64,000 bases of DNA from Candidatus Omnitrophota bacterium (GTDB lineage Bacteria; Omnitrophota; Omnitrophia; Omnitrophales; Aquincolibacteriaceae). Below are positions 37,188-55,447 of this stretch, one piece after another. The position numbers were made by a program, and so were the translations under genes. Where the stretch lies: NCBI GenBank assembly GCA_043821445.1, contig JBDRCT010000031.1, positions 35,620 through 99,619 on the forward strand, read 5' to 3'. The notes under the pieces are model-generated. The model saw nothing but the letters and a program-made list of their open reading frames with translations, was not told the DNA's origin and searched no databases. How positions within the stretch are numbered: the first letter of the stretch is position 1; each line of letters starts with the position of its first letter.

Positions 37188-38420
37188 TTATGTCTGTCCC
37201 CCCAAAGGGGACTGCCACATGTTTTGGTCGGTGCCGGCGGGGACGAGCATCGGGCCTTGCAGGAACAGGATCTCCTGGCTCCCCGGCGGCGGCGTGGCCG
37301 AGATGCACCGGATGACGGGAACGCTCACGGGGGCGCTTGAATTGCCGGCCAAGTCTTCCGCAAGGACGGTAAAATGATTATCCCCTCTGACGAGGCCTAC
37401 CAGAACCGACCAGGTCACGGAACTATCGTTTGTGACAAGCGGCGTGTACGAGAGGCCGCCATCGGAGGAGATCCAGATGCTTGCTCCGGGAGCCTTGCTT
37501 CCGCTTAAGGTGACGGTACGAGTGGTCACGGTCGCGAGCGGTGGTGTCACCAGGGGGGCGGTCATCATATAAGTGATCGGGGGAATGGTCACCACGGCGC
37601 TTGGATGGCCGGCCCTGTCCTGAGCGAGAATCGTGAAATGATTGGTACCGCTGACCAGTTTCACCGGAGCGGACCACGTCGTGGCGGTAGTTTTTGGCAC
37701 AAGCTGTGTGTAGAACCGGCCCCCGTTGGATGAGATCCGGATGCTTTCTTCGGCCGCTTTCGTTCCGTTTAACACGATCCATGGATGGTTCGACACGGTC
37801 CCGGGCGGCGTCACCGTGGGAGCGGGCACCGTATAACTGTAGGTAATGGTCGGGACGATCACTTCGGCGCTTGGATTTAAAGTCTCATCTGCCGCGACGA
37901 TCCTGAAATCATTGGTTCCGTCAACAAGGTCCACCGAAGCGGACCAGGGGGTCTCTGTGCTCTCCGCCACAAACAGCGTGTACGACCTGCCGCCGTTTGA
38001 GGAGATCCAGAGGCTCTGCCCCGGGGCCTTGGTCCCGCCGAGTGTGAGCGTGCTCATGCTGACGGTCCCGGGCGGCGGCGCGACATCAGGGGGAGGCACG
38101 AACTCCGGTGTTTCGGGAGCCTTCAGGGTTTGCGTTTCTGCACCGGCTGAAGGAGCGGAGAGCGCGCCGGTGGCCAAAAAGTCAAGGATCGCGGGAGGGA
38201 TCCGTATCGCGGGAGGTACAGGGGCCGTTTCCGCTACGGAGTTTTTTTGCGCCAGGGTGTCCGTCTGAGGCTGGTCCCATCCGGCCTGGATGCCGGTCTC
38301 AGGCTGCGTCGTCACCGCGAAGCCCGGCAGAACGGCCTGTGAGAGAACAAAAGAGAGGGCGGCGGTCAGTAGGAGGCTCTTCTTTGCGACGAGTACTTTC
38401 TTAAACCGGTCATGGATCAA
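37188..38420 (-). CDS. Secreted protein with three Ig-like ~90-aa repeats
   Basis: Signal peptide. Three tandem repeats (PGTVS..L.GTKA.G.S..ISSNGGR.YT..V......WSA.V.LV.GTN.F.I.A.D..) resemble the giant-protein N-terminal Ig-like domains. Its C-terminal tail is duplicated at 32239..32390. Confidence 0.65.
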   Translation of the reverse strand: MIHDRFKKVLVAKKSLLLTAALSFVLSQAVLPGFAVTTQPETGIQAGWDQPQTDTLAQKNSVAETAPVPPAIRIPPAILDFLATGALSAPSAGAETQTLKAPETPEFVPPPDVAPPPGTVSMSTLTLGGTKAPGQSLWISSNGGRSYTLFVAESTETPWSASVDLVDGTNDFRIVAADETLNPSAEVIVPTITYSYTVPAPTVTPPGTVSNHPWIVLNGTKAAEESIRISSNGGRFYTQLVPKTTATTWSAPVKLVSGTNHFTILAQDRAGHPSAVVTIPPITYMMTAPLVTPPLATVTTRTVTLSGSKAPGASIWISSDGGLSYTPLVTNDSSVTWSVLVGLVRGDNHFTVLAEDLAGNSSAPVSVPVIRCISATPPPGSQEILFLQGPMLVPAGTDQNMWQSPLGGQT

Positions 38421-38764
38421 GGCGGTCTGCGCTCCTCTTTTTATTCCCGATTTTCAGTACCGTTCTCCATTTATTTTAAAGGTTAACGGTACCCTACTGC
38501 AAACCCTAAAAATCAATTGGAATGCAGCATGATGGATTCTTTTATGACGCGAAAAAGCTAACATCAGAAACGTCTTTTTGCAATAGCTCCTGGAATAAAA
38601 AGACAGATGACTTCACCCGTCTTTGCCCGTTCCCAAGGTACCCCCGTTATCTTTCCATTGACGAAGTTCCTCAGATAGAGCAATATATAGCAAAAGGTGC
38701 GCCTTGGAAGTGCCGATGGTGATATCAACACGACAAAAAGCATATGGGAAAAACAGGGGGAACC

Positions 38765-39349
38765 ATGAAGCAGAATACAAGAACAAGGATGCTTGTTGGG
38801 GGTGTCATAGCGGCGATCATCATCTTGGTAGTGTCTCTTCTTCCGCGTCAGGCCGACCAAATCGTGGTAAAGACGAACTATTTTAGCAACGGACAATTGG
38901 AGTTTGAATGTCCTTACAAGAATGGACAGCGCGACGGCCTGTGTAGGACTTATTATCCGAGCGGACAAGCGAGACTCGTAGAGTATTTTCAGGATGGACT
39001 ATTCAACGGCTCGCGCAAAACTTATTTTCCGGATGGGAAATTGGAGACGGAAACAATTTATCAAAACGGGAGGATCGACGAGAGATGGCTTAAGGAATAC
39101 TACGCCAGTGGACAATTGAAAACACAAGTGATCCACCAGCAGGGGAGGAGGCTCGCGGAGAGGATCATTCAAGAGTATTATGAAAGCGGGCAATTGAAAT
39201 CAGAGACCGCCTCCGACGGTGCGTCCGGGATAATAACCATTAAGGAATATTATGAGGACGGAAAGTTGAAGGCCCAGCGGATCCTCAAGGATGGCAAGCC
39301 TGAAGGAATATCTAGCGAGTATGACGAGGCCGGGAACTTGAAGCCGTAG
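38765..39349 (+). CDS. TM-anchored MORN-variant (YwqK-like) repeat protein
   Basis: TM helix, then seven repeats YF.NGQLE/YYPSGQARL/YFPDGKLE/YYASGQLK/YYESGQLK/YYEDGKLK. Confidence 0.6.
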   Translation: MKQNTRTRMLVGGVIAAIIILVVSLLPRQADQIVVKTNYFSNGQLEFECPYKNGQRDGLCRTYYPSGQARLVEYFQDGLFNGSRKTYFPDGKLETETIYQNGRIDERWLKEYYASGQLKTQVIHQQGRRLAERIIQEYYESGQLKSETASDGASGIITIKEYYEDGKLKAQRILKDGKPEGISSEYDEAGNLKP

Positions 39350-40112: not shown

Positions 40113-40631
40113 ATGGACATCAAAGTTCGAATTTTTATGGGCGGGTTGATCGGAGGGGTTATCCTTTCGGCAGTCCTATTGAATCCTGTGGGGTACGGGA
40201 AGTACCCTGTTTGGACGCCCGTTGAGGAACCCGTCAAGACATCCGTTAAGCGGTATTATAAAAGCGGAAAATTATTTTCAGAGAAGTTTTACGGGAAAAC
40301 CGCATCAGAGTGGACGGTCAAGGAGTATTACGAAGACGGGCCGTTGCGTTCAGAGATCTCTTATAAGGATGGAAATCGGGAAGGGATTGCTAAGGAATAT
40401 TACAAAAACGGGCAATTGCGCTCAGAAATATCCTATAAGGATGGAAAGCGGGAGGGGCCTTCCAAGACGTACTACGAAAACGGAAAATTGAAAGGCGAAA
40501 TGGCTTATAAGAACGGAAGGCTCGAGGGACTGTTGCGGTATGACCAGAACGGGCCGTCAGAAAGAGAAATAGGAAGAGAAATAGCAAAAGAAATGGCAAA
40601 AGAAATGGATCCGGAGAGTGGAAAGTCATAG
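40113..40631 (+). CDS. TM-anchored MORN-variant (YwqK-like) repeat protein
   Basis: TM helix, then YYKSGKLFSE/YYEDGPLRSEISYKDGNREG/YYKNGQLRSEISYKDGKREG/YYENGKLKGEMAYKNGRLEG repeats. Tail carries a short EIAKEMAKEM repeat. Confidence 0.6.
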   Translation: MDIKVRIFMGGLIGGVILSAVLLNPVGYGKYPVWTPVEEPVKTSVKRYYKSGKLFSEKFYGKTASEWTVKEYYEDGPLRSEISYKDGNREGIAKEYYKNGQLRSEISYKDGKREGPSKTYYENGKLKGEMAYKNGRLEGLLRYDQNGPSEREIGREIAKEMAKEMDPESGKS

Positions 40632-41161: not shown

Positions 41162-41493
41162 TCCGCGTCACTTTCCCGGGAACTTCCGCGGTTTCTCCCG
41201 TGACTCGCACGCCCTCTTTTTTCCCTCATGACCCGCGTTCCTGAGGCCCTTTTTCCCGTCTGTTCTGGCCCACGCCGGAGACTTTTTCCCAAGGAAGGGT
41301 AAAGCGAAAAGAAAGATTTTTGATTGCATGGAAATGTATTACAATTTCAGAGAAGCTCATTCAATGCCTTGTCTTTCGAGCTCCTTTGAGTACGAAGGAT
41401 GGGTGTGTTCAAGGAAAGGGTTGAATGGGGAAAGAGTGTCCGGTCCGTTGACGCCCGGCATTGTGGGGTCCGATATTTGAGGTGCTATTCGAG

Positions 41494-42942
41494 ATGAAGA
41501 TCTGCCTGATCAATCCACCCTTTACAGACCGGTTTTGCCGCGGTGCCCGTTGGCAAGCTTCCAGCAAAGGCACGGCCCTGTGGATGCCGATCTGGCTGAT
41601 CTATGCGACCGGGGTGCTCGACAAAGCCGGGCACCAGACGCGTCTGATCGACAGCCCGGCCAAGAAGCAATCCCGTGAGGAGCTTTTGGACGAGGTGAAG
41701 GGATTTGCCCCACAAATGATCGTCATTTATACGGCGACGGGGAGCATTGTGAACGATCTGGAAATAACGGATCTCCTGAAGCGGGCGTGTCCGGAAGCGA
41801 TCACCGTGGTCACAGGGCCGCATGTTTCCGTTTTGCCCGAGGACTCCCTGCGCCGTTCGCCGGGAACTGATTACGTGATCTGCCGCGAGTTCGACTCTGT
41901 GTTGCGTGATATGGCGGCCGTGATGGACCGGGGGGGCGATCCTTCATCCCTTGCGGGTCTCGCGTATCTTCGCGACGGGAAATTTACGGCTAACGAACCA
42001 CCGCCTCCGATTGAGAATCTCGACGAGCTGCCCTTCTCCATCCAGGTCATCGAAAAACATCTGAATATTCATCATTATCACATGGATTATTTGCTTTACC
42101 CGTGGGTTCAGACCTATTTCGGACGGGGCTGCTACGCGCAATGTGTTTTCTGCCTGTGGCCGCAAACCCTGATGGGCCGGAAGTACCGCAAGCGCAGTCT
42201 CGACAGCATTTTTGCCGAATTGGACTATATCCGCGACCGGGCGCCTTACGTCAAAGAACTGATGATCGATGATGACACTTTCACCTTCGACCTGGGGCGT
42301 GTCCGGGAATTCTGCGAGCGGAAGATCGCGGGGGGGTATAAGATCAACTGGTGCGCCAATGTCCGGCCCAATATCACCGACATCGAGCTTCTCCGGCTCA
42401 TGAAAAAAGCGGGTTGCCGCGCGATGGTGGCCGGGTACGAATCCGGGAGTCCGGAGATCCTGAAACGGATAAAAAAAGGCATCACCCTGAGGCAAATGGA
42501 GGCTTTTGCCGGGGCCGCCCGCAAGGCCGGCATTCAGGTGCACGGCGATTTCATTATCGGCCTTCCGGGTGAAACTCCCGGGACCATCGAAGAGACTTTC
42601 AGGACGGCGCTCCACCTTAAGCCGGCGACGATGCAGGTTTCGATCGCCCTGCCGCTTCCCGGTACGGAGTTTTATGACTGGCTCAAGGAGAATAAATTTC
42701 TGAAGACCGAGGATTTCTCGCAATTCCTGACCCCGGAGGGGGCCCAGAATGTGATGATGGATTATCCGGGTCTTTCGGGCGAAGACATGAAAAAAGCCAT
42801 GCATCGCATTGTCGTCCGTTATTATTTGCGGCCGGGTTACCTGGCCGGCGCTCTTTGGAGGATCGTGAAAGATCCCCGCGAGGCCGTGAAGTTCTGGCAT
42901 GCGGGGTGCAAGTTTTTTAAATATGCCATGTTTGGAACCTGA
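41494..42942 (+). CDS. B12-binding domain radical SAM protein (class B), paralog 1
   Basis: N-terminal cobalamin-binding-like domain (KICLINPPF...). Radical SAM motif GRGCYAQCVFC (Cx3Cx2C). TIM-barrel core. Confidence 0.8.
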   Translation: MKICLINPPFTDRFCRGARWQASSKGTALWMPIWLIYATGVLDKAGHQTRLIDSPAKKQSREELLDEVKGFAPQMIVIYTATGSIVNDLEITDLLKRACPEAITVVTGPHVSVLPEDSLRRSPGTDYVICREFDSVLRDMAAVMDRGGDPSSLAGLAYLRDGKFTANEPPPPIENLDELPFSIQVIEKHLNIHHYHMDYLLYPWVQTYFGRGCYAQCVFCLWPQTLMGRKYRKRSLDSIFAELDYIRDRAPYVKELMIDDDTFTFDLGRVREFCERKIAGGYKINWCANVRPNITDIELLRLMKKAGCRAMVAGYESGSPEILKRIKKGITLRQMEAFAGAARKAGIQVHGDFIIGLPGETPGTIEETFRTALHLKPATMQVSIALPLPGTEFYDWLKENKFLKTEDFSQFLTPEGAQNVMMDYPGLSGEDMKKAMHRIVVRYYLRPGYLAGALWRIVKDPREAVKFWHAGCKFFKYAMFGT

Positions 42943-44371
42943 GGAACCCATTTTGGATTTACTTCTGATCAATCCCTACTCCTCGAACCCTCATCCGATG
43001 ATCCCGCTCGGTCTGGCGTCCCTGGCCGCTGTGGCCTTGGAGGCAGGTTATTCTGTCAAGGTCGTGGACGCCTGGGCTGAGGGTTTGCGGGATCCCGATC
43101 AACTGGCGAAAAGACTGCGTGCGTTGCCGGTGCCCCGAGTGACGGGGATCAGCGTGCTCACGACCAACCTGCGCAGTGCCAAGGAAACCGCAGTTGCTTC
43201 GCGAACGATCTTTCCCGGGACTCTGCTTGTAATCGGGGGGCCCCACGTGTCGGCGTTGCCCGATGAAGTTTTAAAAGAATTTCCCGCTGCTGATCTGGGG
43301 GTCTATGGCGAAGGGGAAATGACGCTCAAGGAGATCCTCGCGGCCTTTACGCCGGAGGGCAAGCCGCCCCGGGATCTGCCCGGCACCCTGTGGCGGAACG
43401 CAGATCAAACGACCGTTAAGGCCGGACCGCGGCCGACGATCAAGGATCTGGACAGCCTGCCACGGCCTGCCCGGCATCTTTTTACTCTGGACAAATATCA
43501 TCCGCATTCCCCCTACGGCAGAAGATGGCGTTATGTCAATGAGATCACATCGCGTGGTTGTCCCTTTCATTGCGCTTATTGTTCCAAAAGCGTCTTCGGG
43601 GATTCTTACCGGGCGTTCTCCCCGGAACGTGTTGTGGACGATCTCCGGGAACTGGTGGCCCGTTACCACGTGCGGGAGATCCATTTTTATGATGACGATC
43701 TGACCCTAAATCGTAAACGGGCGGTGGAGATCATGGAACGCCTGATCGCGGCGGACCTGGACCTGATCTGGTCCTGCACGACCCGGTGTGATCTCGTGGA
43801 CACCGAACTTCTGGGTCTGATGAAAAAAGCCGGATGCTGGATGATCAGTTATGGCATTGAATCGGGGAATGAAGCTCTGAGGCAGACCGTGCAGAAGGAA
43901 GTCACCCGGGAGCAGATCGAAACCGCGGTCCGGGACACCAAACGGGCCGGGATCAGAGTCACCGGTTATTTCATGATAGGGCTGCCGGGCGAAACAGAAG
44001 AGACCGTAAAAGAAACCATGGGTTTTGCCGACCGGTTGAAGTTACACTACGTCAATTGGGCGGTGATGACCGTGTATCCGGGGAGTCCTTTCTATTTCGA
44101 TATTAAAAATGGAAAATACAAGGATTGCAAATTAACGAAGCAGGGCAGTGAAAAAGGGTCTCTCTTCCAGGACTCATTCGAGACCGGCGTGGAAGGTTGT
44201 TTGACCCGCGATCGCATGGAAACATTGGTTCGCCTGGCCACGCGCCGTTTCTACTTGCGGCCTGACAGCCTGTTGCGGACCCTGACCGATATCAGGTCCT
44301 TCGGTCAGCTGCGGCGTACCTTGCAGACGGGATGGAACATGTATCATTGGTTGAGAAAAGCATCGGCATGA
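42923..44371 (+). CDS. B12-binding domain radical SAM protein, paralog 2
   Basis: LLLINPYSS B12-like domain. SRGCPFHCAYCS motif. Overlaps the upstream gene by 20 nt. Confidence 0.8.
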   Translation: MPCLEPEEPILDLLLINPYSSNPHPMIPLGLASLAAVALEAGYSVKVVDAWAEGLRDPDQLAKRLRALPVPRVTGISVLTTNLRSAKETAVASRTIFPGTLLVIGGPHVSALPDEVLKEFPAADLGVYGEGEMTLKEILAAFTPEGKPPRDLPGTLWRNADQTTVKAGPRPTIKDLDSLPRPARHLFTLDKYHPHSPYGRRWRYVNEITSRGCPFHCAYCSKSVFGDSYRAFSPERVVDDLRELVARYHVREIHFYDDDLTLNRKRAVEIMERLIAADLDLIWSCTTRCDLVDTELLGLMKKAGCWMISYGIESGNEALRQTVQKEVTREQIETAVRDTKRAGIRVTGYFMIGLPGETEETVKETMGFADRLKLHYVNWAVMTVYPGSPFYFDIKNGKYKDCKLTKQGSEKGSLFQDSFETGVEGCLTRDRMETLVRLATRRFYLRPDSLLRTLTDIRSFGQLRRTLQTGWNMYHWLRKASA

Positions 44372-45843
44372 AAGTCCTGCTGGCTTGCCCCAACGATAGT
44401 GAGCTCGCGGCTTCTTTTAGCAAAAAAGGCGGGGTGTCGATCCCTCTGGGGCTTGCGTATCTCGGCGCGTATGTTCAGGATATTCCCGGAATTGAGTTAG
44501 CGGGATTGGATAACAATGCCCTGAAATTAGAGCCGGAAAAATATCGCGAGATCATTGCCCGTGAAGCTCCCGACATTGTTGCGATCAGCGTGATGACCGC
44601 AACGGTATTTACCACATGGGAAATGGCGAGGGTGGTCAAGGATATTAATCCTCGCGCGATCATTGTGGTCGGAGGCGGCCACTGTTCGGCATTGCCCGAG
44701 AGCACGTTCGAGGAACCTGCCATCGACTATGGGGTGGTGGGGGAAGGGGAAGAGGCCTTCCGCGAACTGCTTATGGCACTCCTGGAAAAACGGGATCCGT
44801 CCCGTATCCCTAATCTTATTTACCGACACGACGGAAAGGTCCACGTCAATCCCAGGCGTTCCCCCATCCGGGACATCGACAAGATCCCTTTTCCCAAACG
44901 CGATCTTTTCGACAATTCTAAATACAATATGAATGTCAACCGGCGCGCTACCTCCGGGAAAAACACCACCCTTCTTACCAGCCGTGGGTGTCCCTACGGA
45001 TGCATTTTTTGCTCTAAATCGATCTACGGGCACCATTTTAATCAGAGATCCCCGAAGAACGTGATCGAGGAAATAAAGGCTCTTGAAAACGAGGGTTATA
45101 GCGAGATCCTGATCGTGGATGATACGTTCACCGTCCATAAAAAATGGGTGTTGGAATTCTGCGGTCTCTTTAGCGAACTCCAACTCAAAATGCGGTGGAA
45201 TTGTCACGCACGCGTGAATACCCTCGACGAGGAAACGGTCTCGGCGATGAAGCGGGCGCATTGCACGGGGATGGCGTTCGGGATAGAGTCCGGGAATCCG
45301 GAGATGCTGAAAAAAATAGACAAGCGCATCACCCTGGACCAGGCCCGCGAGGCGGTCCGCCTGTGCAGAAAATACGGGATCAGCACGCTCTGCAGTTACA
45401 TCTTCGGCCATCCGGGGGACACGCGTCAAACGATGAACGATACGCTCCGCGTGGCTCTGGAGTTGGACTCGGACTATGCGAATTTCTGCGTTCTGGTGCC
45501 GATGCCGGGGTCCAAGATCTTTGATGATTTGATGAAAAAAGAAAACGTCGAAAAAAGATGGGACCGCTATCTGGCACATTCCAAATCCCCGATGGCCAAC
45601 AGTCTTTGCGAGATCTCTCAATCGGAACTTCAGACGATACAGAAAAGCGCTTTTCGGCGATTTTATTTTCGGCCCAAATATATCTGGCGGAAACTACTTG
45701 CCATTAAAAATCCTGCAGCGCTATGGAACTTGATCAAAGGCGCCTATATCGTGTTACTCTTTCAGATTCAGGCAGTGTCACGGAAAAATCGTGGCGAAAC
45801 AGGTAGCCGTGATGCGGGTAAAAGTGATCATGGGGCAGAATAA
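44368..45843 (+). CDS. B12-binding domain radical SAM protein, paralog 3
   Basis: ATGA overlap with the upstream gene. SRGCPYGCIFCS motif. Confidence 0.8.
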   Translation: MKVLLACPNDSELAASFSKKGGVSIPLGLAYLGAYVQDIPGIELAGLDNNALKLEPEKYREIIAREAPDIVAISVMTATVFTTWEMARVVKDINPRAIIVVGGGHCSALPESTFEEPAIDYGVVGEGEEAFRELLMALLEKRDPSRIPNLIYRHDGKVHVNPRRSPIRDIDKIPFPKRDLFDNSKYNMNVNRRATSGKNTTLLTSRGCPYGCIFCSKSIYGHHFNQRSPKNVIEEIKALENEGYSEILIVDDTFTVHKKWVLEFCGLFSELQLKMRWNCHARVNTLDEETVSAMKRAHCTGMAFGIESGNPEMLKKIDKRITLDQAREAVRLCRKYGISTLCSYIFGHPGDTRQTMNDTLRVALELDSDYANFCVLVPMPGSKIFDDLMKKENVEKRWDRYLAHSKSPMANSLCEISQSELQTIQKSAFRRFYFRPKYIWRKLLAIKNPAALWNLIKGAYIVLLFQIQAVSRKNRGETGSRDAGKSDHGAE

Positions 45844-45869: not shown

Positions 45870-46823
45870 ATGAATGAGCCATCCGTCAATGTCATTATCC
45901 CGGTCCTGAACGGAGAGCGCACGCTTGCGCAATGCCTGGAGGCTATCGTCCGTCAAACTTATGGCGGCAAGATCATCCCGGTGGTCATTAACGACGGTTC
46001 CACCGACCGCACCTCCGAAATTGCGCGATCGTTCAAAAATGTCCAACTCGTTGAACAGGAAAATAAAGGACGGGCCGTGGCACGTAACGCCGGCATTGCC
46101 GCCTCCGGTGCAGAAATCCTGGCCTTTACCGACGGCGACTGTATTCCCACTGAGACCTGGCTGGCGGTGCTTGTGGAACAGCTTACAAAGCAAGGCAAAA
46201 AACGCGGCCTTGTGGGGGGATCGGTTGCGATCCCCTCAAAAACCAATATTTGGCAGCGGCTTGACCATCAGGCCTGGGCGCATTCTATCGGGCCGGAAGC
46301 TCCCGCCGGTCCCACGATCTTCGGTTCCACCGCCAATATGGCCCTCTTCAGGACGGTATTCAACGCGGTGGGAGGTTTTGATCCCCGTCTGCGGGGGAGC
46401 GAGGATTCCGATTTGGCATTCCGGATACACCGCGCTGGATACGAAAATTTCTTTGAACCCAAGGCGGTCGTGATGCATGATCATCCGCGTACCACGATGG
46501 GCGCTTTTCTCCGCCAGCGCTTCAATTACGGAAAGTGGACCATACAAACGGTGCTCAAGCACAAGCCCTTGCCGCCTTATTCCTGGATGTTCCCGAACAG
46601 TCGGATCCTGTTGGCTTTGCTCTGGCCGTGTTATGCCTTTTTGGCGACCGTCTTTACCGTGCTGCGCAATCTTCCTCGCGATCCCTCTGTCCTTTGGCTG
46701 AGTCCCCTGCACTTGTTGGGGCGCATTTGGGAATATCTCGGCACCGTGGCAGGTTGCGGGGATTATCAGCGGATCTTCGGCAAGGACGCCGGGTCACGCA
46801 CGCAAGGAGATCCCCGATGCTGA
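45870..46823 (+). CDS. Glycosyltransferase family 2
   Basis: VNVIIPVLNGERTLAQCLEAI...VVINDGSTDRT GT-A N-terminus. DGD/DxD-like motifs. Confidence 0.8.
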   Translation: MNEPSVNVIIPVLNGERTLAQCLEAIVRQTYGGKIIPVVINDGSTDRTSEIARSFKNVQLVEQENKGRAVARNAGIAASGAEILAFTDGDCIPTETWLAVLVEQLTKQGKKRGLVGGSVAIPSKTNIWQRLDHQAWAHSIGPEAPAGPTIFGSTANMALFRTVFNAVGGFDPRLRGSEDSDLAFRIHRAGYENFFEPKAVVMHDHPRTTMGAFLRQRFNYGKWTIQTVLKHKPLPPYSWMFPNSRILLALLWPCYAFLATVFTVLRNLPRDPSVLWLSPLHLLGRIWEYLGTVAGCGDYQRIFGKDAGSRTQGDPRC

Positions 46824-47878
46824 CCGATATCCTCCAATGGAAGCTGACTTCGCGGGCATGCCGTCTGCCCCTCTATATGATCGTTTTTGTGACCTACCGG
46901 TGCAACTCCCGGTGCCGGACTTGTTTTTATCACGAGCAGATCGAAAGTCCGCAGTCCGCGGACTTGCCGCTCGATTTTTATGCCGAGGTGGCGCGTTCGC
47001 TGCCTCGCTTACTTTGGCTGCATCTCTCGGGCGGTGAACCTTTTTTACGCAAAGACCTGCCGGAGCTTGTGGCGGAGTTCTACCGGCATTCCGGCGTTCG
47101 CAAGATCGGCATTCCCACGAACGGTCTCGCGGGGGAGAACCTTTTGGAGAGCGCCCGCCGGATCCTCGCTCTTTGTCCGGAGGCACAGCTCAATATTGTT
47201 TTGTCCCTGGATGGATTGGAGAAAACACACGATTTTCTGCGGGGCGTTCCCGGCAATTATCAAAAGACGATGCTCGCGCTCGAAGGGCTCAAAGAGATCC
47301 GCTCGAAACATCCCCGGTTGGCTTTGAACGTGTGCACCGTTCTCAATAATTACAATGCGGGGGAGATCCCGGAATTGTTACGGCACGTGCAGGAACTGGG
47401 CGTTGACTTTCACGATGTGGGACTCTTGAGAGGAGATTTCCCTGATAAGAGCCTGGAACTTCCGCCGGCCGACGAAGTGGAGAAGATCCTGGACCTGGTG
47501 GATTACTATGCCGAACGTTATTACGCGGCCGGCCGCCATTATCCGGGGGTGTCTGCCCGTCTTGCCGCCCGGGCGCACCGGCACCTCAATCGTTCTTTTC
47601 TCGAGTTTTTACGCACCGGTACGGTGGCCCGGCCTTGTCAGATCGGGGACGGATTCGCCGTGATAGAGCCCAACGGCGATGTGCGCTTGTGTGAGATGAC
47701 GCCCGTGATCGGGAACCTTCTTAAATGGCACGGTGATCTTGCCGCTTTCTGGAATAGCACCGCCGTACGCAAAGCCAGGCGAACGGGGCTCTGTTCCGCC
47801 GGCGCCTGTACGCACAGCAATTTTCAGACACGGAATTTTCTTTTGAATCCCGGCCAGTGGTGGAGGGCCTTCTCCTGA
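46817..47878 (+). CDS. Radical SAM protein with C-terminal SPASM-like Cys cluster
   Basis: ATG at 46817 overlaps the GT2 stop. YRCNSRCRTC (Cx3Cx2C). C-terminal CQIGDG...CEMTPV...CSAGACTHSN cysteine cluster. Confidence 0.7.
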   Translation: MLTDILQWKLTSRACRLPLYMIVFVTYRCNSRCRTCFYHEQIESPQSADLPLDFYAEVARSLPRLLWLHLSGGEPFLRKDLPELVAEFYRHSGVRKIGIPTNGLAGENLLESARRILALCPEAQLNIVLSLDGLEKTHDFLRGVPGNYQKTMLALEGLKEIRSKHPRLALNVCTVLNNYNAGEIPELLRHVQELGVDFHDVGLLRGDFPDKSLELPPADEVEKILDLVDYYAERYYAAGRHYPGVSARLAARAHRHLNRSFLEFLRTGTVARPCQIGDGFAVIEPNGDVRLCEMTPVIGNLLKWHGDLAAFWNSTAVRKARRTGLCSAGACTHSNFQTRNFLLNPGQWWRAFS

Positions 47879-49278
47879 AGATCCTTTTTCTGAACCCGCC
47901 CTTTGGCTCGCGCCGTCCGGAAGGCCTTGATGCGCCGATGGGCATCATGTATCTGGGCGCCGTGCTGAAGCAAGCGGGGCACTCGTGTTCCCTGGTGGAC
48001 CATGTGTGGGAAAAACAAGATGATTGGCGCAAATGGGATCTTGCGCTTTCCAAAAAACCCGATGCGGTGCTCGTCAACACGCAGATCCGGTTCAGTAACG
48101 AGACCCATGCGGCGATGCGGAGACTCCGGTCCCAATATCCTTCGCTCCCGGCGATCGCGTTCGGTCCCCAGGCCTCGACGGAGCCTTCCCGGTTATTACT
48201 GGAAACGGGATTTGACGCTTGCGTGATCGGCGAACCCGAAGAAGTGATCCCTGACGTGTTCCATGACATGGCAAGGCGAAAGACGATCTTGGCCCGGCCG
48301 GGTATCGCCACCGTGGAAAACCCGAATTCCGGACCGGCGTCCCGGATGGACGTCGAAAAACTTCCATGGCCCGATTGGGACTTGGTGGAATACGGGCGGT
48401 ATATCCACTCCACCCACAGCGCCGTTTTTATGGCTTCGAGGGGATTGAACTATGAGGATAAGTTCAATCAGCCGCCGCTTATCTATGCGAAAAAACCCAC
48501 TCGGCGTCTCAGTATCGAACGCGTCATGTGCGAACTTACGCAGTTACGCGAACGTTTTCCTGGCAACTACATGCTTCTTTTTCACGATGAGATCTTCACG
48601 GAAGACCGAGATTGGGTGATCAAACTATGCGCCGCATTGAGGAAATCCCAATGGAAAGCGCCTTATTGGTGCTTCACTCGTCCCGATCTTATCGACACAG
48701 AACTTTGCCGCACCCTGCGCCGGAGCGGGTTCGTGGGCCTCAGCATGGGGATGGAAAGCGCCTCGGACCGGATCCTGGGGATCTTGGGGAAAGAGTTGAC
48801 CGTTTCCCAAATTGAAAAAGGATTCCGTTCGGCACAAAAAGCGGGGCTTCTTACGACAGGCTCGGTCATGATCGGCACCGCCAGTGATGAACTGGGACAA
48901 CCCGATGAAGACCGGCGCGAGCTCGAGTCGACTGTCCATATGGTAGGCCGCCTGCATCCGGATGTTCTTACCGTGACGCTCACCACTCCGCTGCCGGGAA
49001 CGCCTCTGTATGAGTCTTTGAAAGAGAGGGTTCTGGCAAAGTCACCGGAGGAATTTAACTATTATCATGTTTGGCCCGGAAAATATCCGTTACGCCTTGA
49101 AACTCTTACCGCCGGGGACCTTGCAAAAGCCGCGGCGCATATCAGGGCCGTATGGAAACGCAAACTTTGGAAAACGGCATTAAGAATATTGGTCCTTGCT
49201 TTTAGTAATGGAGCGTTCCGTAATACCTTGTTCAACCAGATCGCAAAGGTCGTGAAGCGCAAAGTCCTTCCTGCGTGA
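47857..49278 (+). CDS. B12-binding-domain radical-SAM-like protein lacking the CxxxCxxC motif (probable pseudoenzyme)
   Basis: Clear homology to the three upstream paralogs (LFLNPPFGSRR..., downstream core). The position of GRGCxxxCxFC reads ASRGLNYEDKFN, so all three Cys are replaced. Confidence 0.65.
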   Translation: MVEGLLLKILFLNPPFGSRRPEGLDAPMGIMYLGAVLKQAGHSCSLVDHVWEKQDDWRKWDLALSKKPDAVLVNTQIRFSNETHAAMRRLRSQYPSLPAIAFGPQASTEPSRLLLETGFDACVIGEPEEVIPDVFHDMARRKTILARPGIATVENPNSGPASRMDVEKLPWPDWDLVEYGRYIHSTHSAVFMASRGLNYEDKFNQPPLIYAKKPTRRLSIERVMCELTQLRERFPGNYMLLFHDEIFTEDRDWVIKLCAALRKSQWKAPYWCFTRPDLIDTELCRTLRRSGFVGLSMGMESASDRILGILGKELTVSQIEKGFRSAQKAGLLTTGSVMIGTASDELGQPDEDRRELESTVHMVGRLHPDVLTVTLTTPLPGTPLYESLKERVLAKSPEEFNYYHVWPGKYPLRLETLTAGDLAKAAAHIRAVWKRKLWKTALRILVLAFSNGAFRNTLFNQIAKVVKRKVLPA

Positions 49279-50466: not shown

Positions 50467-50877
50467 ATGTTCCTTAAAGAGCATATCCTTACGGGAGCTG
50501 TTGCGGCGGGGGTGGTGGGCTGGTACGTATCCCCCCAGGCGGGTATTTCGGTGCTGGCCGGAAGCGTGCTGATTGATGTGGACCATTACTTATGGTATAC
50601 CGTAAAATTCAAAGATAACTCGCTCGGACGGGCCACGCATTTTTTTGAAGCCAAAGAGGCGGATCACTATTATTGTCTTTGTGTTTTGCATACGGTCGAG
50701 GTGATCGCGGTCTATATCGCCGGGGTCTTATTCATGCATGGCGCGATCTTTTGGATTTCGGCCGGCTGTCTCATGCATATGGCGCTTGACGTGGCCCAGG
50801 GCATTCTGGACGGGGGGCTCTTTCGCAGAAAGTGGAGTCTGATCCACGCGATCTTCTTTCGCGCCAGGGGCGGGTGA
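50467..50877 (+). CDS. Hypothetical membrane protein
   Basis: Three to four hydrophobic helices. No recognisable motif. Confidence 0.45.
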   Translation: MFLKEHILTGAVAAGVVGWYVSPQAGISVLAGSVLIDVDHYLWYTVKFKDNSLGRATHFFEAKEADHYYCLCVLHTVEVIAVYIAGVLFMHGAIFWISAGCLMHMALDVAQGILDGGLFRRKWSLIHAIFFRARGG

Positions 50878-50919
50878 TTTTTTTTCATAACGTAAAAAAT
50901 GATAAGAAAGGATCAGGCG

Positions 50920-51642
50920 ATGAGCGGCACAAACAGTTCGCGTTCGCTGGTGCTTATCCCGGCCTATAATGAGGCTTTGCGAATAAGCGGGCTTATTGAA
51001 AGTATCAGGCGTGTCGTACCTGAAATGTCCATTCTTGTGGTGAATGACGGTTCAAAGGATGATACTCTAAACATTTCCCGCCTATCCGGCGCTACCGTCG
51101 TCACTCACCCTTTTAACATGGGATACGGCGTTGCGATCCAAACCGGTTACAAGTACGCTCTTGCCCAGAACTATGATTATCTTGTCCAGCTTGACGCCGA
51201 CGGCCAGCACGATCCGTCCTGCATTTCGGCGCTTTTGGCTCCGGTGATCGCGGGAACGGCCGATTTCGCTATCGGCTCGCGTTTTCTCGGGAACAGCTAC
51301 CGCCCGCCGCTTGCGCGCAGGGTGGGCATGGCGCTCTTCCGCGGGATCGTATTTCTGGTCACGGGCAAGTTCATTACAGATACGACCTCAGGATTTCAAG
51401 CGTTCAACCGTGAGGTCATACGTTTTTTTTCTACGGATATCTTTCCCGTCGACTATCCGGACGCCGATATGCTGATCACGCTCCATCGCGCGGGCTTTCG
51501 CATGATCGAGATCCCGGTCCGGATGATCGAAAACCGCGACGGAAAATCCATGCACGGCGGATGGAAGCCGGTCTACTACATGTTCAAGATGCTGTTGTCC
51601 ATTGGCGTGACGCTCATGAGGGCCAAGGGAAAAAATAAATGA
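50920..51642 (+). CDS. Polyprenol-phosphate glycosyltransferase (GT2, DPM/GtrB/ArnC-like)
   Basis: LVLIPAYNEALRI...VVNDGSKDDT...VQLDADGQHDP. Typical of polyisoprenyl-phosphate hexose transferases. Confidence 0.8.
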   Translation: MSGTNSSRSLVLIPAYNEALRISGLIESIRRVVPEMSILVVNDGSKDDTLNISRLSGATVVTHPFNMGYGVAIQTGYKYALAQNYDYLVQLDADGQHDPSCISALLAPVIAGTADFAIGSRFLGNSYRPPLARRVGMALFRGIVFLVTGKFITDTTSGFQAFNREVIRFFSTDIFPVDYPDADMLITLHRAGFRMIEIPVRMIENRDGKSMHGGWKPVYYMFKMLLSIGVTLMRAKGKNK

Positions 51643-51771
51643 GATGCCCTGCGATCGTGCGGCGGTATCAACCTAGCACCGCCTCAAGATTGAATTTATG
51701 GGTTGGCGGTACAGCACTGTTAATCCATAAAATCCAAATTGAAAACAGTGCTAGGGAAAAACGGGGGAACC

Positions 51772-52137
51772 ATGCTTGAAAGCCAAAAAATATTTGCTTT
51801 ATTGACTTGCTGTTTTGTTTTTGTGTATACCCTCAATCTGGTGAGAAGGCGAAAACTCCGCGAAGAATACTCCGTCCTCTGGCTGGGGACCAGCCTGCTG
51901 ATGTTCATCCTCGTGATACGCTACGAATGGCTCGTGGCCCTCACCGGCCTGATCGGAGCCGGCCTGCCGACGACCACTTTGTTTATTGGCGCGATCATCT
52001 TTCTCATGCTGATAGCGGTTCAGCTTTCGATCAAGATATCGAATCTGACAGACCAGGTAAAAAATCTTGCCCAGGAAAATGCCTTGCTCCGGAACGAGGT
52101 GATCCCATGTCCGCGAGGACCGGACGCAAAGGGATAG
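51772..52137 (+). CDS. DUF2304-like small membrane protein (partner of the GtrB-type GT2)
   Basis: Two to three TM helices plus a C-terminal coiled coil. Conserved synteny with DPM-like GT2 genes. Confidence 0.55.
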   Translation: MLESQKIFALLTCCFVFVYTLNLVRRRKLREEYSVLWLGTSLLMFILVIRYEWLVALTGLIGAGLPTTTLFIGAIIFLMLIAVQLSIKISNLTDQVKNLAQENALLRNEVIPCPRGPDAKG

Positions 52138-52226: not shown

Positions 52227-53585
52227 TTAGGATCGCCGCCAACTTATATGATCGTGTTTTACCATTGTGTTATCCAGAAGATGTGTGTCGGCATCTTCCT
52301 GCGAGATAAGACCTTTCTGAACACCTTCCCTTAGGGCGTCGTTACGCAAGAGCATTCCCTGAGCCCGATTCATCGCCATGACATTGTAGATCTGAATAGT
52401 TTGGTTATCCCGTATCAGATTACGGATCGGAATCGTGACCGGCATCGTTTCAAAGATCGCCACACGTCCGGGGCTGTCCTTTCTTTTGAGCAGGACCTGC
52501 GAGATGACCGCCTGAAGCGTCATGGCCAGCTGGACCCTCATTTGAGACTGTTGGTTGGGAGGGAAGACGTCGATCAAGCGTTCGATGGCTTGGACGGCAT
52601 CGTTAGTGTGAAGTGTTGCAAAGACCAGGTGGCCTGTTTCGGCTGCGGTCAAAGCCATCGAGATGCTTTCCAGGTCACGGATCTCTTCAACGACGAGCAC
52701 GTTCGGGTCTTCCCGGAGTGCCACACGAAGAGCGCTTGCAAAAGAGATCGCATCGTCTCCGATCTCGCGTTGGCTGATCACGCAGCATTTATTCTTGTGG
52801 ACATATTCGATAGGGTCGGACAGCGTGATGATGTGGGCATTCCTGTGATTGTTCATATGGTGCACCAAGGCCGCCAGGGTCGTGGTCTTGCCGCAGCCCG
52901 TGGCGCCGGTAAGCAGCACGAGCCCATTAGGCAAAGCGACCAGCTTTTCCATTAAGGGAGGAAGCCCGAGTTGCTCCATGGTGGGTGGGACAATGGGGTT
53001 GGCGCGAAAAACACCGCTCAGATGGTTCCGTTGATAGAAAAAATTAATACGGAACCGGTGGGTGAAATTCGGAAGTGTTACGGAACAATCCACTTGGCGG
53101 TTTTCAAGAAGATACTCTTTTTGATCCCTGCTGAGGAATATCTGGATGCAGGAATCCATAAAATCGTCCGTGACGGGTTTTACCTGCATGAAAGGAGACA
53201 GAATGCCGTCGATTCTGAAGATCGGATGGCTTCCCACCTGAAAATGGATATCCGAGGCGTTGCGACTCAGGCCGCTTTTCAAAACGCTCAGGACATCGTC
53301 CGGTGTTTTTGGAACGTTACCGGCCTTCTTGGAAGATTCTTCCTCGGGCTCGTTCTTTGGGTCCCCTTGAATATAGACGATATCGTCAACCATGAAAATC
53401 CCCCCCTTGGATTTTGAAAGTTCACGCTTGTAAGAAAAAGTATCTGTATAAAAGTATATCTGGAGGAAGGTTTGTTGGGAAGCATTTAAATGGGGATTTG
53501 TGTTGCGAAAGACCGGGTCTTTCGATATTTTAAAGGCCCTAAGCAAATCCGTCGCATACGCCTTTAACGGGAGATCCTGAGACAA
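52227..53585 (-). CDS. PilT/PilU-family type IV pilus retraction ATPase (with N-terminal extension)
   Basis: Walker A GLVLLTGATGCGKTTT. Asp box and His box (LVVEEIRD, TLHTNDAV). Alternative start at the Met corresponding to nt 53393 would give ~388 aa. Confidence 0.8.
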   Translation of the reverse strand: MSQDLPLKAYATDLLRAFKISKDPVFRNTNPHLNASQQTFLQIYFYTDTFSYKRELSKSKGGIFMVDDIVYIQGDPKNEPEEESSKKAGNVPKTPDDVLSVLKSGLSRNASDIHFQVGSHPIFRIDGILSPFMQVKPVTDDFMDSCIQIFLSRDQKEYLLENRQVDCSVTLPNFTHRFRINFFYQRNHLSGVFRANPIVPPTMEQLGLPPLMEKLVALPNGLVLLTGATGCGKTTTLAALVHHMNNHRNAHIITLSDPIEYVHKNKCCVISQREIGDDAISFASALRVALREDPNVLVVEEIRDLESISMALTAAETGHLVFATLHTNDAVQAIERLIDVFPPNQQSQMRVQLAMTLQAVISQVLLKRKDSPGRVAIFETMPVTIPIRNLIRDNQTIQIYNVMAMNRAQGMLLRNDALREGVQKGLISQEDADTHLLDNTMVKHDHISWRRS

Positions 53586-53595
53586 GGAGGTTGCC

Positions 53596-54279
53596 GTGAG
53601 TTCCTACGAATATACGATGGGGAAAACGTTGGATCTAAAAGCCGAGCAGGAGAGGACGCTTGCGACGCCCAAGCTTCCGGCGAATGGGATATTGAGGCTC
53701 ATGTTCTGGCAATTTAATGTGCTCTACGGGAAGCCTCGGTCGCTGCCGAAGGTCATGGTTCTCGAGATCCTTGCGCGCTACCCTTACTGGGCGTGGGAGA
53801 ACGGCGCCTACCATTTTTTGTCGAAACTTTACAGCGGTACCAAAAAAGTCCCCGTTGAAAAGGTCGAGGTGGCCCTGCGCCATATCCAAATGGGGCGCGA
53901 ATCACAGGATAACGAACAGTGGCACATGTTCCTTTGGGCGGACCTTTGCCACCAGAAGGGGATCAAACTCGGCTGGCTCCGTCATTTTGTGATCCCCAAG
54001 TCCATGACGCTTGTTTATTTCTTCATGACGCGCATCATGTATTGGCTCAAGCCTGTTTGGTCATTCGCCATGAACGCCGCCTTTGAGTCCCACGCCGAAC
54101 ACGAATACATGCTCTATGCCAAAGAACACCCCGAGTTTGAGGATATGCCTGTGGATTCTGTGTGGTTTCAGCATTACCCCAAGCAGAAGTCCTTGGCGGA
54201 TCTCATCCGTCGCGTGGGCCTGGATGAGCGGGATCACATGAATCACTCCCTGGAAGAGATTGAAAAGCTGACAAAGTAA
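53596..54279 (+). CDS. Hypothetical protein
   Basis: 227-aa ORF, helical and Trp/His-rich. No motif recognised. Confidence 0.4.
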   Translation: MSSYEYTMGKTLDLKAEQERTLATPKLPANGILRLMFWQFNVLYGKPRSLPKVMVLEILARYPYWAWENGAYHFLSKLYSGTKKVPVEKVEVALRHIQMGRESQDNEQWHMFLWADLCHQKGIKLGWLRHFVIPKSMTLVYFFMTRIMYWLKPVWSFAMNAAFESHAEHEYMLYAKEHPEFEDMPVDSVWFQHYPKQKSLADLIRRVGLDERDHMNHSLEEIEKLTK

Positions 54280-54289
54280 TTTCGAGGGA

Positions 54290-55447
54290 TTAAGAAGAAG
54301 TTTGTTGGTAAAGGGAAAGGGCGGGAGCGGGAAGCTTGAGATCGGGGAAGCGCCTTGCAATGCTTTCGTGGAACAGATAATCCAGGTGATCATTGCTTTC
54401 GGGGGCATCTCCCATTACCTCACGCCAGACGGTCCTGTTCTCCATACAGAAATAAACGAAGACATCCTCCCAGCGCCTCCGGATCTCGCTATAAATATGC
54501 CGGTAGAGCCCGACACGTTCCGGCCGGAAATAGCGCATCTTTCCGTCCAGGCCCTTGACGAATTCCGCCGTCGTGATCTTTGTTCTTGGAAAGCGTTCCT
54601 CGATGACCTTTTTAAGTGAGGCCGGATAGCGCAAGCTGCCAAGGCTGATCCACATCACTTCTTTTTCTGGGATGGCTGAGGTCAGTTTTTCGAGAAGTTC
54701 CGCGTACCGTTCCTTCCATCCCGGCAGCATGAGCAGGGGATCGAAATGAAAGCCCAGGCGGTAACCTTTTTTGAGGGCCTTGCGGGCCGCTTTCAAACGC
54801 ACCTCCAAAGACACGGTTTTGTGCTCCTCCGTCCGGATGAAGGGGTCAGGATTCAGCGACCAGGAGACGAGGACGTTTTTTTTTGGAATATCCGGCAAAT
54901 GATCGACCTGAGCGGTCTTGGTCTTGATCTCCAGGATCATTTTCGTACCGAGGACGTGACGGATCAAGCCCTCATTCAGGCGGATCAGCCGGTCCAGCGC
55001 GAGGCTGTCCGTCAGTTCTCCCGTGCCCATCCGGAAAAGGCGCCGTGGCTGGCTTGCGATCAGGGCGTCAATCTCGCGGGGAATATTCCCGGTATTGACA
55101 TAGACCGTGATCAGCGGGACATTCAAATAATTCTGCAGGATGCAATAAGTGCAGTCGAGAGGGCAGTGGGTTTGCGCGTTGAGGATCCGGTAGCCGCAAC
55201 AAAGGTAATCCGTCCCCGTGGCGGGGCAAGGTTTGAGGAAGGGCCCCTTGAAGTTCGTGAGCCAAAGTTTTTTCTTGCCGGCGGTAAGCGGTGTTTTTTC
55301 AATCGTTCTGAGAAAGGCGTTCTTGTCCGAGACGGTCGTGACCGGGATGCCGCCGAGGGTCCGAAGGATGTGCCCGGCAAGAGGCGAGCGAGCGACATTT
55401 TTATCCAGATAGATATGATCGATCCCGGGAATGGGTTTTGAGTTCAT
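54290..55447 (-). CDS. Spore-photoproduct-lyase-family radical SAM DNA repair protein
   Basis: CPLDCTYC (Cx3Cx2C) radical SAM motif. Overall length and layout fit SPL (SplB-like) family proteins. Confidence 0.7.
   Translation of the reverse strand: MNSKPIPGIDHIYLDKNVARSPLAGHILRTLGGIPVTTVSDKNAFLRTIEKTPLTAGKKKLWLTNFKGPFLKPCPATGTDYLCCGYRILNAQTHCPLDCTYCILQNYLNVPLITVYVNTGNIPREIDALIASQPRRLFRMGTGELTDSLALDRLIRLNEGLIRHVLGTKMILEIKTKTAQVDHLPDIPKKNVLVSWSLNPDPFIRTEEHKTVSLEVRLKAARKALKKGYRLGFHFDPLLMLPGWKERYAELLEKLTSAIPEKEVMWISLGSLRYPASLKKVIEERFPRTKITTAEFVKGLDGKMRYFRPERVGLYRHIYSEIRRRWEDVFVYFCMENRTVWREVMGDAPESNDHLDYLFHESIARRFPDLKLPAPALSLYQQTSS

Follow-up and report, generated by a model that had tools for sequence, protein, structure and literature searches.

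A homolog of class B radical SAM enzymes without the cluster cysteines, conserved in a glycosyltransferase operon of Omnitrophota and Desulfobacterota

Radical SAM (S-adenosylmethionine) enzymes are defined by a [4Fe-4S] cluster, and the canonical members bind SAM through coordination to the unique iron. Two recent reviews of the B12-radical SAM enzymes, PMC9204698 among them, treat this cluster as universal. Here we describe a gene of a Candidatus Omnitrophota bacterium, located in the 64,000-nucleotide stretch of DNA that was analysed (the window), whose 473-residue product descends from a radical SAM enzyme of the cobalamin type (class B architecture) but lacks the cluster. The described protein that matches this Cys-less protein best over its full length, by sequence as well as by fold, is AprD4, the radical SAM 1,2-diol dehydratase of apramycin biosynthesis (PDB 6FD2). 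Both combine an N-terminal Rossmann-like domain with a partial TIM barrel. AprD4 and ArsL bind no cobalamin despite their Rossmann-like domains (PMC12931638), and the barrel of AprD4 binds an aminoglycoside pseudodisaccharide, as the title of entry 6fd2 states. AprD4 retains its cluster motif (CPYPCRFYC) and is a radical enzyme, whereas no Cys stands opposite this motif in the Cys-less protein, which scores 83.7 bits on the AprD4 model of NCBIfam (NF033070, cut-off 500) and hence falls outside the AprD4 family.

Two other systems are relevant. TsrM, the cobalamin-dependent tryptophan C2-methyltransferase (PDB 6WTE/6WTF), has the class B fold (Foldseek E 5e-21; 16% identity to the Cys-less protein) and is a known member of the radical SAM fold that operates without radical chemistry. 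Beneath its corrin lies a polar Arg, and the invariant R78 of the Cys-less family lies in the same beta3-alpha3 loop. However, TsrM has a [4Fe-4S] cluster (three Cys and a Glu) and binds cobalamin, whereas the Cys-less family has no cluster ligands and its cobalamin motifs are remodelled. The second system is the hopanoid pathway, in which, according to a table of PMC12324291, the GT2 glycosyltransferase HpnI adds N-acetylglucosamine and HpnJ, acting on the glucosamine-bearing hopanoid, yields the bacteriohopanetetrol cyclitol ether. The likeness here is the presence of an HpnJ-like B12-radical SAM gene and of GT2 genes in one operon. The differences are that the second GT2 of our operon (GT2b) matches HpnI only weakly (21 bits) and that its HpnJ-like protein stays below the cut-off of the HpnJ model TIGR03471, on which the Cys-less protein itself reaches 70.4 bits against 577.6 and is thus not an HpnJ. 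Full-text literature searches returned no Cys-less class-B-type family, no radical SAM pseudoenzyme, no link between DUF2304 and radical SAM proteins, and no description of this operon.

Alignment with MAFFT placed the sequence SRGLNYEDKFN at the CxxxCxxC site of the protein, in the columns where the three B12-radical SAM genes upstream read GRGCYAQCVFC, SRGCPFHCAYC and SRGCPYGCIFC. Identity to these three genes is 22–27% over the full length. The codons at the lost cysteines are TTG for L197 (nt 48445–48447), GAT for D201 (48457–48459) and AAT for N204 (48466–48468). In seven orthologous genes from independent assemblies these positions likewise hold L or Y, D, and N or Y, and all three motif cysteines are absent from each of the 25 aligned family members. 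The family consensus at the site is SRG-[LYMF]-[NDE]-x-x-D-x-F-[NS]-Q-P-P-L-I-[YH]-A-x-x-P, with D201 and F203 invariant. Together, these results bear out the preliminary description of this DNA, which had proposed a full-length alignment with the three upstream genes and the loss of all three cysteines.

Two explanations could have undone this observation. A frameshift or sequencing error was ruled out, since the frame runs through without a break, with homologous sequence on either side of the site, and independent assemblies share the replacements. Cluster ligands elsewhere in the protein were likewise ruled out: in a search of the whole alignment of the 25 members no cysteine was invariant, and even C44, C122, C258 and C272, at about 90% conservation, each give way to another residue in at least one protein. 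The cluster-ligating CX3CX2C that marks the radical SAM superfamily is therefore lacking, its positions being taken by L197, D201 and N204, and there is no doubt that the protein is unable to ligate the canonical radical SAM [4Fe-4S] cluster, as had been predicted. Without the cluster there is no reductive cleavage of SAM, hence no radical chemistry, and the protein certainly cannot initiate it. The Pfam Radical_SAM profile (PF04055) gave 29.0 bits, narrowly under its cut-off of 29.5, and the match begins at profile position 22, past the Cys motif.

The open reading frame (ORF) was confirmed with 473 codons and a GTG start. The NCBI version (P0001, from a Ca. Omnitrophota metagenome-assembled genome, 210-kb contig) begins at the next GTG, has 472 residues, is 100% identical and is labelled "radical SAM protein". 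At most loci the orthologs start with ATG, GTG or TTG in an NTGA overlap with the upstream stop codon. In the window the codon at this position is CTG (CTGA, 47875–47878), and the start has therefore probably moved to one of the two upstream GTG codons, which makes the protein about 6 residues longer.

A search of 5.8 billion proteins yielded about 35 orthologs with 50–100% identity, after which the score falls sharply from 504 to 91 bits; 25 of them form the family alignment used throughout. They come from metagenome-assembled genomes of Omnitrophota, Thermodesulfobacteriota and Desulfuromonadaceae and from unbinned metagenomes, and are currently labelled "radical SAM protein", "BchE" or "YgiQ". 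The family is uncommon: among 185,579 GTDB species, each represented by one genome, a pattern scan detected it in 6 species genomes, besides one unrelated weak match, and six genomes are too small a sample for covariation or phylogenetic-profile statistics. The ratio of nonsynonymous to synonymous substitution rates (dN/dS, Nei-Gojobori) was 0.18 against the ortholog of locus L005 (dS 0.46, unsaturated) and 0.105 against that of locus L006. These values are comparable to those of the flanking genes (0.06–0.19) and show that the Cys-less clade is maintained under purifying selection.

Conservation is unevenly distributed along the protein. The invariant fraction across the family is 0.21 for the whole protein and 0.44 for the former cluster loop (11 of its 25 positions); it reaches 0.57 in the Rossmann beta1 loop and 0.55, 0.53, 0.50 and 0.60 in barrel strands beta2, beta4, beta5 and beta6, and drops to 0.07–0.14 in peripheral helices and 0.02 at the C-terminus. 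The invariant positions thus gather at the former active-site cleft. A pseudogene in decay or an artefact of assembly or sequencing, for which only the missing cysteines and the sub-threshold Radical_SAM score could speak, has a negligible probability and was excluded: the ORF is full-length, the orthologs from three lineages and independent assemblies share the same replacements, dN/dS is 0.10–0.18 and the fold is predicted with confidence. The earlier argument that an intact-length ORF does not reflect simple decay thus stands, and the two checks suggested with it, on related genomes and on dN/dS, gave concordant answers.

In order to place the family among its relatives, an exhaustive hidden Markov model (HMM) search was run against 1.84 billion cluster representatives. 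The Cys-less family is a single representative at 863 bits, followed by P0041 at 375 bits and by a continuum from 246 bits downward. P0041, P0042 and others have an intact SRGCxYxCxFCQP, with the same "QP" after the motif as in the Cys-less family; the motif region of P0041 reads SRGCSYNCLFCQP. This intact family (P0041, P0042, P0046), uncharacterised and with more than 2000 relatives at E<1e-30 in Omnitrophota, candidate phyla radiation bacteria, Bathyarchaeia and others, is the nearest by sequence and also shares N- and C-terminal features with the Cys-less proteins. It differs from them in retaining CX3CX2C, GxS, GGPH and GEGE. The CX3CX2C motif is kept in 128 of the 129 nearest single-domain relatives outside the family. 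The one exception, P0172, an independent relative from the representative library that lies outside the window, has only its first motif Cys changed, to Tyr (TRGYPFSCTFCN), in what may be a second and incomplete loss of the cluster site within this broad family.

A neighbour-joining tree gathers all 25 Cys-less proteins in a single clade with a long stem and places P0041 beside it as the sister. Their monophyly next to an intact sister indicates that the cluster ligands were lost once, in the ancestor of this small clade. The P0041 gene directly follows a class I methyltransferase gene with a 4-nt overlap and has an HpnJ-like gene nearby; the methyltransferase is homologous (E 3e-38) to the one that precedes the Cys-less gene in several loci. 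Thus an intact protein held a comparable operon position. The intact B12-radical SAM genes of the operon score only 53–142 bits on the family HMM (124–135 for the three upstream genes of the window), against 246–375 for the positionally unrelated intact family (P0041, P0042), which rules out a recent tandem duplication of the upstream genes. The term "paralog" used in the preliminary description is imprecise, as these genes align over their full length but are not close relatives.

AlphaFold2 (AF2), run with the family alignment, gave a model with a mean per-residue confidence (pLDDT) of 89.9 and a predicted template-modelling (TM) score of 0.89. The model consists of a five-stranded Rossmann domain (8–141), a linker, a six-stranded partial barrel (188–382) and a helical C-terminus; pLDDT falls below 50 only at residues 1–3 and in part of the rebuilt loop (206–211). 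Foldseek against the PDB ranked AprD4 first (E 8e-25, TM 0.73–0.76), followed by TsrM, MgmA/QCMT, OxsB, CysS and TokK, and its matches also include MiaB, BioB and HydE. A profile search of PDB sequences put AprD4 at the top as well (E 4.6e-24). Model and Foldseek matches thus predict the TIM barrel of the radical SAM superfamily. The barrel motifs retained are F242-H-D244-E245 at the GGE position, TR275xD, the ribose motif G298-x-E300-S301, G340...E351 (GxIxGxxE) and the beta6 motif P378-x-P380-G381. Putative equivalents of the SAM-binding motifs (H243-D244-E245, E300-S301, G340...E351 and P378-x-P380-G381) are hence present and invariant. E300 aligns with the ribose-motif Glu436 of OxsB and K/R312 with its Lys448, a residue that contacts SAM (PMC9204698).

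Comparison of the clade with 129 intact relatives separates what was kept from what was changed. About 39 superfamily-conserved positions are kept, including R195-G196, F242, D244, R275, G298-E300-S301, G340, E351 and P378-P380-G381. About 14 conserved positions have switched to another conserved residue: the cluster cysteines (C201D and C204N, with C197 mostly L), the Rossmann positions G72L, G102F, H105Q and G127P, and others that include G211A, D245E and C292F. The new invariant polar residues in the cleft are R78, D201, H243, E245 and E249.

The cobalamin side of the protein is changed too. In class B enzymes the dimethylbenzimidazole tail forms a hydrogen bond with the Ser of the G-x-S-x-L "downstream motif", and the GG and GE motifs position cobalamin and make room for it (PMC9204698). 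In the Cys-less protein L72-x-N74-x-Q76-x-R78 replaces G-x-S-x-L, with R78 invariant, and F102-G103 replaces GG, while G125-E126 is kept; the class B motif set is therefore incomplete, though the fold is present. LxN and FG occur in all, or all but one, of the family members, and 107–118 of the 129 intact relatives keep G at these positions. Cobalamin binding by the family appears doubtful on these grounds. The preliminary description had listed a cobalamin carrier among the possible roles; such a carrier or chaperone would supply or re-methylate cobalamin for the three to four class B enzymes of the operon. The Pfam B12-binding score (34.7 bits, cut-off 32.1) and the retained GE motif would agree with it, and the motifs are not absolute, as cobalamin is bound both by CysS, with GGPQ at the GG position, and by OxsB, with GN there. 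Moreover, R78 aligns, through two successive sequence alignments, with the lower-axial position of TokK W76, and the lower-axial residue of TsrM is an Arg; R78 as the equivalent of TsrM Arg69 is a lead from sequence comparison. Against this, the small residues around the dimethylbenzimidazole tail have been replaced by bulky ones clade-wide (G72 to L, S74 to N, G102 to F; roles from PMC9204698), and AprD4, the closest solved relative, binds no cobalamin (PMC12931638). A PDB sequence search with the N-terminal domain alone also matched no cobalamin-binding structure, returning only chance-level IMPDH hits (E > 0.1) that are uninformative. We consider the carrier role highly improbable.

The Cys-less gene belongs to an operon that runs from a receiver-domain gene (40757) to a DUF2304 gene (52137) and whose genes are listed in order in Table 1. 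Its start region overlaps the stop codon of the preceding 353-residue radical SAM gene. Gene-order maps of the window and eleven further loci showed that in 12 of 12 the Cys-less gene is directly followed by a GT2b gene of about 330 codons. The HpnJ-like gene and the PpgS-like GT2 are found in every locus whose contig spans the cluster, and DUF2304 was detected in most. The HpnJ-like gene is the most conserved operon gene tested (dN/dS 0.06–0.08), with full-length copies of 66–95% identity across phyla. The presence of the operon in distant phyla implies that it has spread horizontally. That the Cys-less gene is a fixed component of it, with a selected function tied to the operon, is well supported. 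The product of the operon is probably a heavily tailored glycolipid or cell-surface glycan. A hopanoid side-chain cluster was not adopted as its identity, the HpnJ and HpnI scores being under their cut-offs; HpnK, HpnH and squalene-hopene cyclase gave no match among the window ORFs scanned, to which the search for hopanoid core genes was confined.

The upstream neighbour of the Cys-less gene varies: it is either the pair of GT2a and the 353-residue radical SAM gene or a radical SAM gene of 330–350 codons followed by a class I SAM methyltransferase. This modular swap is visible when window positions 45870–47878 are compared with 8192–10004 of L006 and with L003, L004 and L005, the last of which has both radical SAM genes and the methyltransferase. 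These maps bear on the possibility that the Cys-less protein, itself non-catalytic, is a structural or regulatory subunit paired with one of the active radical SAM enzymes (the 353-residue protein, the HpnJ-like protein or another B12-radical SAM protein), which it would stabilise or supply with substrate. The NTGA overlap with the upstream gene at most loci, the several intact homologs always available in the operon for pairing and the co-occurrence of the HpnJ-like gene in every locus long enough to show it are consistent with such pairing. However, the gene coupled upstream changes between loci (radical SAM or class I methyltransferase), L003 carries its HpnJ-like gene downstream of GT2b and on the other strand, and the peripheral helices and the C-terminus, the expected surfaces for a dimer interface, are poorly conserved while the cleft is highly conserved. 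A partnership of this kind seems improbable.

Table 1. Operon genes in their order along the window, with the domains of the Cys-less protein listed beneath its gene. Coordinates are window positions.
Feature	Position	Strand	Remarks
HpnJ-like B12-radical SAM gene	41461..42942	+	TIGR03471 425.4 bits, cut-off 577.6
Two more intact B12-radical SAM genes	42899-44371 and 44332-45843	+	number and identity differ between loci
GT2 glycosyltransferase GT2a, 317 aa	45870..46823	+	variable upstream module with the 353-aa radical SAM gene
Intact radical SAM protein, weak SPASM match, 353 aa	46817..47878	+	ATG 46817; CNSRCRTC motif
Cys-less class-B-type radical SAM homolog, 473 aa	47857..49278	+	start GTG 47857 or 47860
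N-terminal Rossmann ("B12-binding"-like) domain, residues 8-141	47878..48279	+	cobalamin motifs remodelled
Partial TIM-barrel (radical SAM) core, residues 188-382	48418..49002	+	motifs retained
Former cluster-binding loop, residues 193-217	48433..48507	+	ASRG-L197-NYE-D201-KF-N204-QPPLIYAKKPTRR; three Cys replaced by L, D, N
GT2 glycosyltransferase GT2b, 336 aa	49295..50305	+	MftF/EpsD-like, hydrophobic C-terminal segments
136-aa membrane protein, no family match	50467-50877	+	
PpgS/DPM-like polyprenyl-phosphate GT2	50899-51642	+	
DUF2304	51739-52137	+	

The cleft is the most conserved part of the protein, the SAM ribose Glu and the barrel motifs are kept, and the cluster loop and the cobalamin motifs have been rebuilt. 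This combination is the basis for our proposal that the old active-site cleft may now serve as a ligand pocket. The ligand would be a sugar-bearing pathway intermediate, probably lipid- or polyprenyl-linked, or an adenosyl ligand, and the protein would assist the adjacent GT2 glycosyltransferase as a subunit that is accessory to it or presents its substrate. Since this GT2 is the most consistent partner and the cleft the most constrained region, our preferred reading, with a probability of roughly 0.4, is an accessory subunit of this GT2 that works without cofactors and binds its ligand in the old cleft. Sugar binding would have precedents in the ligand of the AprD4 barrel and in the action of HpnJ on a glucosamine-bearing hopanoid. 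Several points weigh against this assignment. The link to the GT2 comes from gene adjacency alone. In any TIM-barrel protein conservation is highest in the strands and the active-site loops, which leaves the cleft pattern only suggestive. D201, H243, E245, E249 and R78 look as catalytic as they look ligand-binding, and the retained E300 and K/R312, counterparts of the OxsB SAM contacts E436 and K448, would be superfluous for pure sugar binding.

The same residues could belong to a neo-functionalised enzyme whose barrel has turned to polar chemistry without an Fe-S cluster. Such an enzyme might transfer a methyl group directly from SAM by an SN2 reaction in the retained adenosine/ribose pocket, or carry out acid-base sugar chemistry (dehydration, epimerisation or deacetylation) with D201, H243, D244, E245 and E249, possibly with a mononuclear metal. 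The clade-specific invariant D201, N204, H243, E245 and E249 at the former cluster and GGE sites, the strong constraint on the former cluster loop and the retention of E300, K/R312, GxIxGxxE and the beta6 motif would all suit it. The radical SAM fold is moreover known to support non-radical SN2 methyl transfer from SAM, TsrM being the example (PMC9204698, PMC12931638). A dedicated class I methyltransferase, on the other hand, already adjoins the gene in many loci, and AF2 confidence is low in part of the rebuilt loop. SAM binding in canonical radical SAM enzymes also needs coordination to the unique iron. To our knowledge no cluster-free catalytic radical SAM fold has been described, and the literature searches found no precedent for one. 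We regard neo-functionalisation as possible but rather unlikely. Its fullest form, a first radical-SAM-fold enzyme without an Fe-S cluster, and probably without cobalamin, that performs polar chemistry on a sugar or lipid-linked sugar before the adjacent GT2 can act, is to be regarded as a still more tentative idea.

Returning to the proposed GT2 accessory subunit, the label "pseudoenzyme" is plausible for it from what the sequences display: the ancestral catalytic residues are lost, and the gene is under purifying selection with orthologs down to 50% identity. Of the non-catalytic role put forward in the preliminary description, retention under selection holds, and the absence of catalysis is at most plausible, the cleft pattern fitting a ligand-binding pseudoenzyme and a newly catalytic protein alike.

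Some other features of the window lie close to the operon. Downstream, a PilT/T2SSE-type ATPase with an N-terminal extension of about 100 residues (52227–53585, minus strand) directly follows the operon, as it does in the Omnitrophota loci L005–L008. A 227-residue protein (53596–54279, plus strand) scores 28.4 bits on the Pfam AOX (alternative oxidase) profile (cut-off 22.7), and an AOX-family gene has the equivalent position in L006; it is unexpected beside an operon whose many radical SAM enzymes are sensitive to oxygen. At 54290–55447 (minus strand) lies a member of the spore-photoproduct-lyase (SPL) family of radical SAM proteins that scores 103 bits on TIGR04070, far under the cut-off of 400. 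Its conservation beside the operon in L005 and L006 makes a divergent SPL-like enzyme probable. The region immediately before the operon encodes a 410-residue protein (37188–38420, minus strand) with three copies of a repeat of about 90 residues (...GTKAPGxSxWISSNGG...FTVLAED...) and two small proteins (38744–39349 and 40113–40631, plus strand) made of YYxxGxLxxE repeats that look MORN/YwqK-like by eye. Farther away, a giant ORF of 4309 codons (18439–31368, plus strand) encodes a protein in which a Big_13 Ig-like domain accompanies RHS repeats; proteins of great length have been reported as a trait of Omnitrophota.

The Cys-less clade has lost the cluster and remodelled its cobalamin site while keeping the fold and a constrained cleft, and so constitutes a natural experiment on what the scaffold does without its cofactors. 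For annotation, pathway predictions that count family members as radical enzymes are wrong. If the protein is in truth catalytic, the finding would gain high interest. The family marks a rare, horizontally shared operon of Omnitrophota and Desulfobacterota that is rich in B12-radical SAM enzymes and glycosyltransferases.

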